Shown: piece after piece, positions 52,172 through 52,901 of the stretch
Numbering within the stretch: position 1 is the stretch's first letter
How the letters are laid out: the number at the start of each line of letters is the position of its first letter
From: Escherichia phage WPEC2
Strand: one strand, 5' to 3'
Sequence record: PV691511.1
Length of the DNA stretch: 64,000 nucleotides
Position numbers and translations under genes: made by a program
The notes under the pieces: model-generated
Told to the model about the DNA's origin: nothing
Databases searched by the model: none
The model's input: the letters and a program-made list of their open reading frames with translations, nothing else

Positions 52172-52843
52172 CTATTTAATGTTAAGTCTGGCACACAAAC
52201 GAGAAACAGTTTTAGCATCCCATTTACCACCACGTGCTGTTGCTATTTTCTTACTATTGAATTTTTCAGCAATAGTTTTGTAAGGTGTATTTAAATCTCT
52301 AAGGATCTCCAAACGTTCACGAAATGTCTCTGCAAAAGCGTCGGCTTTAACAGAGTTGTATTCCATTTTTCCTTTTCTACGTGCAGCGGCAGTTTTAGGA
52401 TTAGCACTGCCTAATAAAACACCTTTGCTTTTTGCTACAGCAAGACCCTTTTTAATACGATCAGCAATACCTCTAACTTCTTGTTCAGCCAGAACAGATA
52501 GAAGCTGTATAACCATTTTATCTGCGTCTGGCATGATGGCTATCTTAACATCGATCATCTCCAGAAGAGTTGCTACAGAGGCGTTGTTACGACCCAAGCG
52601 GTCAACTTTAGCTACCAATAAAGTTGCTCCGGTAGCTTTACACATTTCAACCGCTTTGACCAGTTCCTTACGTTGCTTCCAATCGCCCTTACCCGAATAG
52701 TATTCAGAAAATTGACCAATAACTTCAGCATCAGGCACAGAGTCTAAGAAGTAACGGATATCGTTCTCTTGGCTCTCCATACCATATTGTGCCTCACCTT
52801 TTTTCTGTTTAGAAAGACGACTGTAAACAACAAACTTTTTCAT
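52172..52843 (-). CDS. small serine recombinase (resolvase/invertase family)
   Basis: ATG at 52843 after AGGAG SD (track start is GTG at 52849); catalytic motifs VVYSRLSKQ, LLVAKVDRLGRN, MVIQLLSVLAEQEVRGIADRIKKGLAVAKSKG align with gamma-delta resolvase; C-terminal HTH-like tail. Confidence 0.8.
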   Translation of the reverse strand: MKKFVVYSRLSKQKKGEAQYGMESQENDIRYFLDSVPDAEVIGQFSEYYSGKGDWKQRKELVKAVEMCKATGATLLVAKVDRLGRNNASVATLLEMIDVKIAIMPDADKMVIQLLSVLAEQEVRGIADRIKKGLAVAKSKGVLLGSANPKTAAARRKGKMEYNSVKADAFAETFRERLEILRDLNTPYKTIAEKFNSKKIATARGGKWDAKTVSRLCARLNIK

Positions 52844-52872
52844 AACCACTCCTAAACTATTACTGTATTCTC

Positions 52873-52901
52873 ACTTTACAAAACGAATAAACACTTGTCA
52901 A
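52873..52901 (-). promoter_or_regulatory. sigma70-like promoter upstream of recombinase
   Basis: Minus-strand TTGACA (52896-52901), 17-nt spacer, TAAAGT. Confidence 0.5.

Follow-up and report, generated by a model that had tools for sequence, protein, structure and literature searches.

A conserved serine recombinase gene in the virulent phAPEC8-like coliphages

Described serine recombinases and the gene of WPEC2

Serine recombinases have been described in phages, transposons and plasmids, and the gene studied here may be compared with each of these. Its closest described relatives are the copies in other phages of its own genus, Phapecoctavirus: phAPEC8_0049 and SKA64 ORF101 are identical to it or at least 99% identical, and nothing sets them apart from it. 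In the 2012 record of the former the note ‘putative site-specific recombinase’ is already present, the counterpart gp53 in phage phi92 is annotated as a ‘DNA invertase’, and other records use the labels serine recombinase (gin), resolvase, DNA invertase, recombinase family protein or, wrongly, integrase. The paper on SKA64 speculates, without data, on a resolvase whose function would be to maintain concatemers as single genomes (PMC10282059). Our literature search found no experimental work on any orthologue. Since the gene is already annotated in public records, the sequence finding is a correct re-identification, and the gene is less novel than an initial annotation of this DNA implied. What is new is the DNA-binding domain of the large-serine-recombinase type, the relatives on small plasmids, and the non-orthologous positions of the gene in Phapecoctavirus and Justusliebigvirus.

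The window, by which we mean the whole 64,000-nucleotide stretch of Escherichia phage WPEC2 that was analysed, comes from a phAPEC8-like phage of the subfamily Stephanstirmvirinae. The region around the gene is 100% identical to phages WPEC1, WPEC4 and WPEC6, and 95–99% identical to about 60 other phAPEC8-like phages. Recombinase genes are routinely taken as warning signs of lysogeny in phage therapy. For this gene the evidence argues against an integrase, since the integrase architecture is absent and there are no prophage copies in E. coli: when the recombinase region was compared with 5,426 complete E. coli genomes there was no DNA match, and neither prophage copies nor attB-like sites in the host were found. 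This result fits a strictly lytic lifestyle, and the genus has been described as virulent and without integrases (PMC10269720). A subfamily of strictly virulent, therapy-relevant coliphages thus retains a recombinase that is predicted to be catalytically intact and that appears to be under very tight selection. To know its target would be to know whether virulent phages put conservative site-specific recombination to use, in replication or genome maintenance or in their struggle with the host, or whether the enzyme is just a passenger.

Three classes of well-described enzymes serve as points of reference. The Tn3/gamma-delta resolvases and Sin share with the WPEC2 protein a common catalytic fold, the active-site residues, the E-helix and a similar overall size. 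They carry an HTH_7 domain, whereas the phage protein carries an HTH_62/PF07508-like domain and an extra helix at aa 149–172, which in the AF2 model lies between the E-helix and the HTH. The setting of the Tn3/gamma-delta genes, with a three-subsite res upstream and a transposon as context, is absent at the phage gene; no transposase genes or terminal repeats were found near it. The invertases Gin, Hin, Cin and Pin are likewise phage-encoded small serine recombinases, and they have a PHROG label in common with the WPEC2 protein. However, invertases of the Gin/Hin type are about 190 aa long and possess HTH_7, against 223 aa without HTH_7 here, and the adjacent invertible segment, the gix/hix-like inverted pair and the tail-fibre context are all absent from the WPEC2 locus. 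The large serine recombinases, such as Bxb1, phiC31, TP901-1 and SPbeta SprA, exceed 400 aa, and the phage protein lacks their zinc ribbon, their coiled coil and the rest of their recombinase domain. Those enzymes are integrases of temperate phages that act with attP and attB, whereas phages of the WPEC2 type are not temperate.

It is in the C-terminal domain that the protein departs from its size class. Among 30 members of the family, the N-terminal part of PF07508 is matched in 18 and HTH_62 in two, and HTH_7 in none; in the WPEC2 protein itself the PF07508 match is limited to profile positions 19–48 of 102. The 78-aa C-terminal domain alone, compared with 1.84 billion representative proteins, finds HTH_62/PF07508 modules in many architectures: some stand alone, some are repeated in tandem, and some follow a resolvase domain in proteins of 200–900 aa. 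The longest structural alignments of the recombinase are with large serine recombinases. The named families of NCBIfam (YneB, XisF, Mpi and CcrB) give at best 32.5 bits, against an equivalog cutoff of 175. The term ‘small serine recombinase’, used in the initial annotation, is therefore apt for the size of the protein (223 aa) but not for its DNA-binding domain, which, as judged from these matches, is of the large-serine-recombinase type and not that of Gin/Hin or Tn3.

The gene, its conservation and its promoter

On the minus strand of the window, the list of open reading frames gives a frame that spans 52,172–52,849 when counted from a GTG codon. The true start is likely to be the ATG at 52,843 and not the GTG at 52,849, since AGGAG precedes the ATG and all annotated relatives use ATG (a coding sequence of 672 nt). 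The gene and its parts are as follows.

52,172–52,843, minus strand: serine recombinase coding sequence, 223 aa, with its stop codon at 52,172–52,174 (Pfam, PHROG and relatives)
52,849–52,853, minus strand: ribosome-binding site AGGAG, 5 nt 5' of the ATG (direct reading of the sequence)
52,418–52,831, minus strand: Resolvase-type catalytic domain with E-helix, aa 5–142 (PF00239, E=5e-18; PDB matches)
52,811–52,813, minus strand: codon of the predicted nucleophile Ser11 in YSRLS (family alignment)
52,589–52,603, minus strand: active-site motif D81-R82-L-G-R85 (alignment, n=30; alignment with gamma-delta resolvase)
52,175–52,408, minus strand: C-terminal helical DNA-binding domain of the ‘recombinase-like HTH’ type, aa 146–223 (PF07508/HTH_62 matches in the family)

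The Pfam Resolvase match (PF00239, E=5e-18, aa 5–142) reaches 66 bits, with the cutoff at 23.3, and PHROG 125, ‘DNA invertase’, is matched with E=2.6e-32. The motif YSRLS occupies aa 7–11, and VDRLGRN aa 80–86. In an alignment of 30 homologues, which reaches down to about 31% identity, the residues Y7, R9, S11, Q25, R58, D81, R82 and R85 are invariant. The motif D81/R82/R85 aligns with D67/R68/R71 of gamma-delta resolvase, whose active site comprises R8, S10, D67, R68 and R71, and Ser11 is the counterpart of S10. An AF2 model of the protein, with a mean pLDDT of 89.6, predicts a long E-helix at aa 109–139, and its best structural matches are serine recombinases; the fold matches in the PDB include Tn3 and gamma-delta resolvase, Sin, and the catalytic domains of Bxb1 and TP901-1. 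No antisense ORFs or structured RNAs were found in the region. All of the catalytic residues are present, together with the motifs YSRLS and VDRLGRN and the E-helix on which the initial identification was based. Domain and active-site residues confirm, as far as sequence can, that this is a real and intact serine site-specific recombinase gene.

Presence and absence among related phages can be stated for the whole genus. By tblastn the protein is at least 99% identical in 62 records, with 100% identity in many Phapecoctavirus records, and a disrupted copy occurs in one phage, Schickermooser, which has two records. Since the core of Phapecoctavirus, as marked by an adjacent 140-aa gene, consists of exactly 64 records, the gene is present in 64 of 64. 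Codon by codon, there are 15 synonymous and no non-synonymous differences from Ro121c4YLVW, and 18 and none from ESCO5; in neighbouring genes up to about half of the changes are non-synonymous (12 to 6 and 10 to 9 in the downstream gene). These counts argue that the recombinase gene is under strong purifying selection, and they rule out a decaying remnant. The suggestion, made initially, that the gene might be what is left of a mobile element is thus contradicted both by the substitutions and by the presence of the gene in every core record. The invariance of the catalytic residues down to about 31% identity implies, moreover, selection for catalysis.

The Schickermooser copy has six small indels, clustered in codons 12–77, and is otherwise about 97% identical (positions 3001–3650 of the piece examined); its annotation covers just the C-terminal 128 aa. 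The gene may be a true pseudogene in this phage, or the sequence may be wrong locally. In the former case plaque formation would not require the gene.

The initial annotation also assigned to the gene a promoter of its own, TTGACA-17-TAAAGT. This sequence precedes the ATG by 29 nt on the minus strand, and a second feature overlaps it.

52,873–52,901, minus strand: sigma-70-type promoter TTGACA-17-TAAAGT (scan; position kept in three other lineages)
52,886–52,911, no strand assigned: imperfect 26-bp dyad, AATAAACAC-N8-GTATTTATT, over the -35 hexamer; a weak candidate for an operator or binding site

The -35 hexamer TTGACA occupies 52,901–52,896 and the -10 hexamer TAAAGT 52,878–52,873, with 10 of 12 consensus positions matched; the -35 hexamer begins at position 52,901, where the initial annotation ended. 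On its own this match is not significant, since the region is no richer in promoter-like sites than its shuffles (30 sites, versus 27.7 ± 6). A promoter of the form TTGAC(A/T)-17/18, however, is found equally far from the ATG in three further lineages, those of phi92, of a Klebsiella relative and of phiWec181, although the flanking sequence does not otherwise align. The promoter is therefore supported by a distance from the ATG that is conserved across four lineages despite unalignable surroundings.

The 26-bp dyad is unique in the window, and at least one hit appears in 25 of 100 shuffles. It is identical in close relatives and is not conserved in phiWec181 or phi92. As a recombination site it was rejected, given its chance-level occurrence in 25% of shuffles and its confinement to close relatives. 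The intergenic gap upstream of the gene measures about 70 bp (10 bp in phiWec181), which leaves no room for a classical res with three subsites; none is present beside the gene, where the upstream gap contains one weak dyad.

The same dyad raises the possibility that the protein serves mainly to regulate, by binding DNA at specific sequences, and that catalysis is secondary; it might, for instance, repress its own gene from the dyad that covers the -35 hexamer. An overlap of this kind would suit an autorepressor, and the resolvases of Tn3/gamma-delta classically autoregulate at res. Yet the dyad does not extend to phiWec181 or phi92, and the catalytic residues are invariant across the entire family; we consider a mainly regulatory protein highly improbable.

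Relatives and position of the gene

Orthologues of 55–57% identity occur throughout Justusliebigvirus as well as in Klebsiella and Serratia phages of Stephanstirmvirinae. Vibrio phages of about 130 kb contain homologues of 30–40% identity, and more distant members of the family reside in prophages. In the ICP1 isolate 2017_DRC_82 a homologue of 30% identity lies, unannotated, at positions 4001–4756 of the piece examined; it falls within 10.6 kb of accessory sequence that is exclusive to the DRC isolates of this Vibrio cholerae phage.

Outside the phages, sequence comparison places the closest relatives on small plasmids that encode Rep and Par. The plasmid proteins, from 114 plasmid records, show 35–40% identity over 95–99% of the query with the same domain order, and their genes are found beside Rep and Par genes on plasmids of 5.7–30 kb. 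The recombinases of pMaD11 of Marinovum and of Klebsiella plasmids of 5.7–6.5 kb have the two-domain architecture in common with the phage protein, and their genes are stand-alone with a non-coding region upstream, as in the phage. Unlike the phage gene, the plasmid homologues adjoin Rep/Par genes, and multimer resolution would be their expected role. On a 5.7-kb plasmid of Klebsiella aerogenes, about 35 bp upstream of the homologue gene, there is a 34-bp palindrome of the form 16-2-16, TATCATTTGTTTGCCG-cc-CGGCAAATTTATGATA, at 4323–4356 of the piece examined, which is plausibly a crossover or operator site for that homologue.

Within the subfamily, the position of the gene varies. The product of phi92 gp53 is 57% identical to the WPEC2 protein, of equal length and with the same domains, and its gene likewise has a promoter of its own, but it occupies a different locus. 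In phi92 and the Klebsiella relative the recombinase lies between gp54 and gp52, and in both of these, as in a metagenomic relative of 51% identity, the order of genes is lysozyme, PhoH, HslV, Dcm, two small genes, recombinase, HisRS-like, NinI, DprA. The orthologous junction in ESCO5, between gp073 and gp072, is empty: its 17 flanking ORFs are collinear with phi92, and 45 bp with a hairpin stand in place of the phi92 promoter and gene. The Phapecoctavirus recombinase is found 16 kb from a site of this gp073/gp072 type, on the opposite strand, in the early block.

The identity of 57% between the WPEC2 and phi92 copies is within the range of syntenic orthologues (25–86%), and the divergence between the genera is thus typical of vertical inheritance. 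On these comparisons the recombinase descends vertically within Stephanstirmvirinae, and the simplest reading of its positions is that a single ancestral gene moved once, from a phi92-type position that is probably the ancestral one. No end repeats, target duplications or spare sequence were found at the ends of the gene, whose stop codon abuts the next ribosome-binding site.

A rival reading is that of a selfish or near-neutral mobile cassette consisting of a single gene with its promoter (about 0.75 kb), which would relocate within and between virulent phages and could be likened to free-standing homing endonuclease genes. The non-orthologous positions speak for such a cassette, namely gp54/gp52 in phi92 versus the early block, with the gp073/gp072 junction of ESCO5 left empty. 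So do the promoter that accompanies each copy and the restriction of the ICP1 homologue to accessory sequence of the DRC isolates. On the other hand, the gene is fixed in all members of both genera and more conserved than its neighbours; its intergenus divergence is that of a vertically inherited gene; its ends show none of the marks of insertion that we looked for; and the serine recombinases that are known to transpose (IS607) have another domain order. On balance we regard a mobile cassette as unlikely.

Early setting, target sites and role

The gene sits in a long run of small ORFs on the same strand. At about 63,370–63,434 and 63,740–63,799 of the window, on the minus strand, there are consensus early promoters (TTGACA-17-TAAAGT or TAATAT), each of which is followed by a conserved leader hairpin GGGCGG...CCGC. 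In ESCO5, at least six copies of early promoter plus hairpin occur at 140–147 kb as perfect direct repeats of 35–55 bp. Since consensus sigma-70 promoters with a leader hairpin head the block, the label ‘early block’ is reasonable by analogy, and in a virulent genus (PMC10269720) the original placement of the gene in the early-gene block of a lytic-type phage holds good.

The neighbouring genes belong to DUF7202 and to PHROGs without annotation. A functional partner was sought among them, and every neighbour is of unknown function. The upstream neighbour, a protein of 70 aa encoded at 52,914–53,126 on the minus strand, is the DUF7202 protein, which several GenBank records mislabel as ‘(methionine) ABC transporter ATP-binding protein’. 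The block also encodes a family of paralogous small early proteins of 104–132 aa, PHROG 2510, with a C-terminal motif R-V-x-W-V-K-E/D-R; this family is the source of the ‘direct repeats’ of 40–44 nt in the block. Its members are the following.

50,120–50,506, minus strand: PHROG 2510 paralogue
51,398–51,796, minus strand: PHROG 2510 paralogue
54,380–54,706, minus strand: PHROG 2510 paralogue
55,139–55,465, minus strand: PHROG 2510 paralogue
58,372–58,686, minus strand: PHROG 2510 paralogue
62,992–63,360, minus strand: PHROG 2510 paralogue

If the promoters are read correctly, the recombinase would be expressed early by the host polymerase. Early expression is one of the points in favour of a ‘weapon’ aimed at DNA other than the phage's own, for example in the host chromosome, in resident prophages and defence islands, or in plasmids and satellites. 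Two further points are that no sites were detected in the complete related phage genome of ESCO5 and that recombinases matter in the conflict between phage ICP1 and its satellite PLE (PMC6002521, PMC9638900). This support is purely circumstantial, however: no host sequence among the 5,426 complete E. coli genomes resembles the region, phages whose hosts differ widely carry homologues, and neither a partner nor a target has been described. An action on non-phage DNA therefore seems to us improbable.

The search for target sites covered both the window and a complete related genome. At 45–64 kb of the window, paired inverted or direct sites are limited to repeats derived from the paralogues and to chance matches. 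When the complete ESCO5 genome is compared with itself, its strong inverted repeats are rho-independent terminators only, and its strong direct repeats are the modules of early promoter and leader hairpin. Its repeated dyads are terminator hairpins only, in a scan that required 10-bp arms, at most one mismatch and equal spacing, and whose sensitivity for degenerate sites is low. Apart from one blunt junction, which is described below, comparison of the window with ESCO5 shows no inverted segment. The paired hix- or res-like repeats that the initial annotation had looked to as a sign of the target thus appear neither at 45–64 kb of the window nor in complete ESCO5, though degenerate sites would escape searches of this kind.

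Several particular candidates for sites were considered and rejected. The first was a site in the direct terminal repeat (DTR), which would allow a cyclisation like that of Cre/lox; the DTR region of BME3, a Justusliebigvirus, and the phi92 cassette share nothing, and no matching dyads were found in them. In the record of BME3, the first 342 bp recur at the end as the published DTR, and the first 788 bp recur also at 146,169–146,956; the feature named ‘DTR-L’ is offset from the true terminal copy, and the ends of this record look unreliable. The second was an invertible tail-fibre segment beside the prophage homologues (P0071, P0089), where no convincing flanking inverted repeats were found. 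The third was a perfect inverted pair of 22 bp, AACCCGCTTCGGCGGGTTTTTT, at 41,248–41,269 and 45,984–46,005 of the window, which flanks the Sir2/Dcm region at convergent transcription; both members of the pair are rho-independent terminators.

These results bear directly on the view that the protein is a Gin/Hin-like invertase, flipping a remote segment of the phage and so switching expression or host range. PHROG 125 and several GenBank records do carry the label ‘DNA invertase’, and these phages possess several sets of tail fibres (PMC8594841). But the C-terminal domain is of another type than HTH_7, terminators account for all strong inverted repeats, dyad sites do not recur, and the single junction that separates the window from ESCO5 lacks the features of a site. 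As the initial annotation had it, moreover, the gene is not adjacent to tail-fibre genes: in ESCO5 the recombinase lies at 10.0–10.7 kb and the tail-fibre module at 74–98 kb, more than 60 kb away. The corresponding distance in the window is about 30 kb; since the window is rearranged, the standard genome should be used for this measure. The inversion of a remote segment, which had been offered as one of the possible roles, is thus left with neither paired inverted sites nor an inverted segment, and we consider it very unlikely.

The best explanation, in our judgement, and one with slightly better than an even chance of being right, is an active recombinase, expressed from its own sigma-70 promoter, with a resolvase-like role on the replication intermediates of the phage. 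Host RNA polymerase would transcribe the gene from this promoter in the early block. As in the rest of the family, dimers of the recombinase would bind a dyad-symmetric site and two bound sites would synapse in a tetramer, whereupon Ser11 would cleave the four strands at positions staggered by 2 bp and, after rotation of the subunits, the ends would be rejoined. Acting on directly repeated sites, the recombinase might delete or resolve DNA in replication intermediates that are circular or multimeric. It is by analogy with the closest non-phage relatives, on small plasmids, that we weakly favour a resolvase-type action on phage replicative DNA. Resolution, which the initial annotation also listed, thereby gains weak support from those relatives.

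A resolvase-like role is weakened by several of the results above: no site was found in the ESCO5 scan, the upstream gap is short, and the dyad is not conserved. It is weakened further by the plasmid homologues, which are themselves uncharacterised, and by the Schickermooser indels if these are real. It also stands against this role that a phage which packages its DNA from concatemers would not obviously need to resolve multimers. After the resolvase we rank, in order, the mobile cassette, a host-directed function, the remote invertase and the pure DNA-binding regulator. One may also ask whether the protein is no housekeeping resolvase at all but either a self-relocating minimal cassette or an early effector that rearranges non-phage DNA. 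Such a reading draws on the non-orthologous sites with a precise empty site, on the accessory status of the gene in ICP1, and on the fact that no target site was found; we hold it, too, to be improbable.

The blunt junction in the window, at 37,536/37,537, is absent from about 66 related genomes, including those of the 100%-identical WPEC1, WPEC4 and WPEC6, and no related record is collinear with the window. Positions 1–37,536 correspond to ESCO5 72,851–113,329, and positions 37,537–63,362 to ESCO5 25,280 down to 365, inverted. At the junction the interior of a gp203-like gene runs directly into codon 2 of a gp070-like gene, whose start codon is lost, and there is no microhomology. We rejected it as a product of the recombinase, since it is blunt, lies within genes and has no common core or dyad; it is most likely an assembly artefact.

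The siblings WPEC1 and WPEC4, identical in sequence, are also rearranged relative to ESCO5, each differently, and WPEC6 keeps the natural arrangement at the gp070 breakpoint. Several breakpoints of WPEC1 and WPEC4 fall exactly at start codons (gp070, gp197 and gp001). Since the partner sequences have no dyad site or 2-bp core in common, these are not conservative serine-recombinase crossovers. The rearrangements may be real or artefactual, assembly artefact being the most likely cause. WPEC1 has an in-frame fusion, gp087(1-33)::gp070(2-), and WPEC4 contains tandem copies of a 74-nt RBS-ATG unit.
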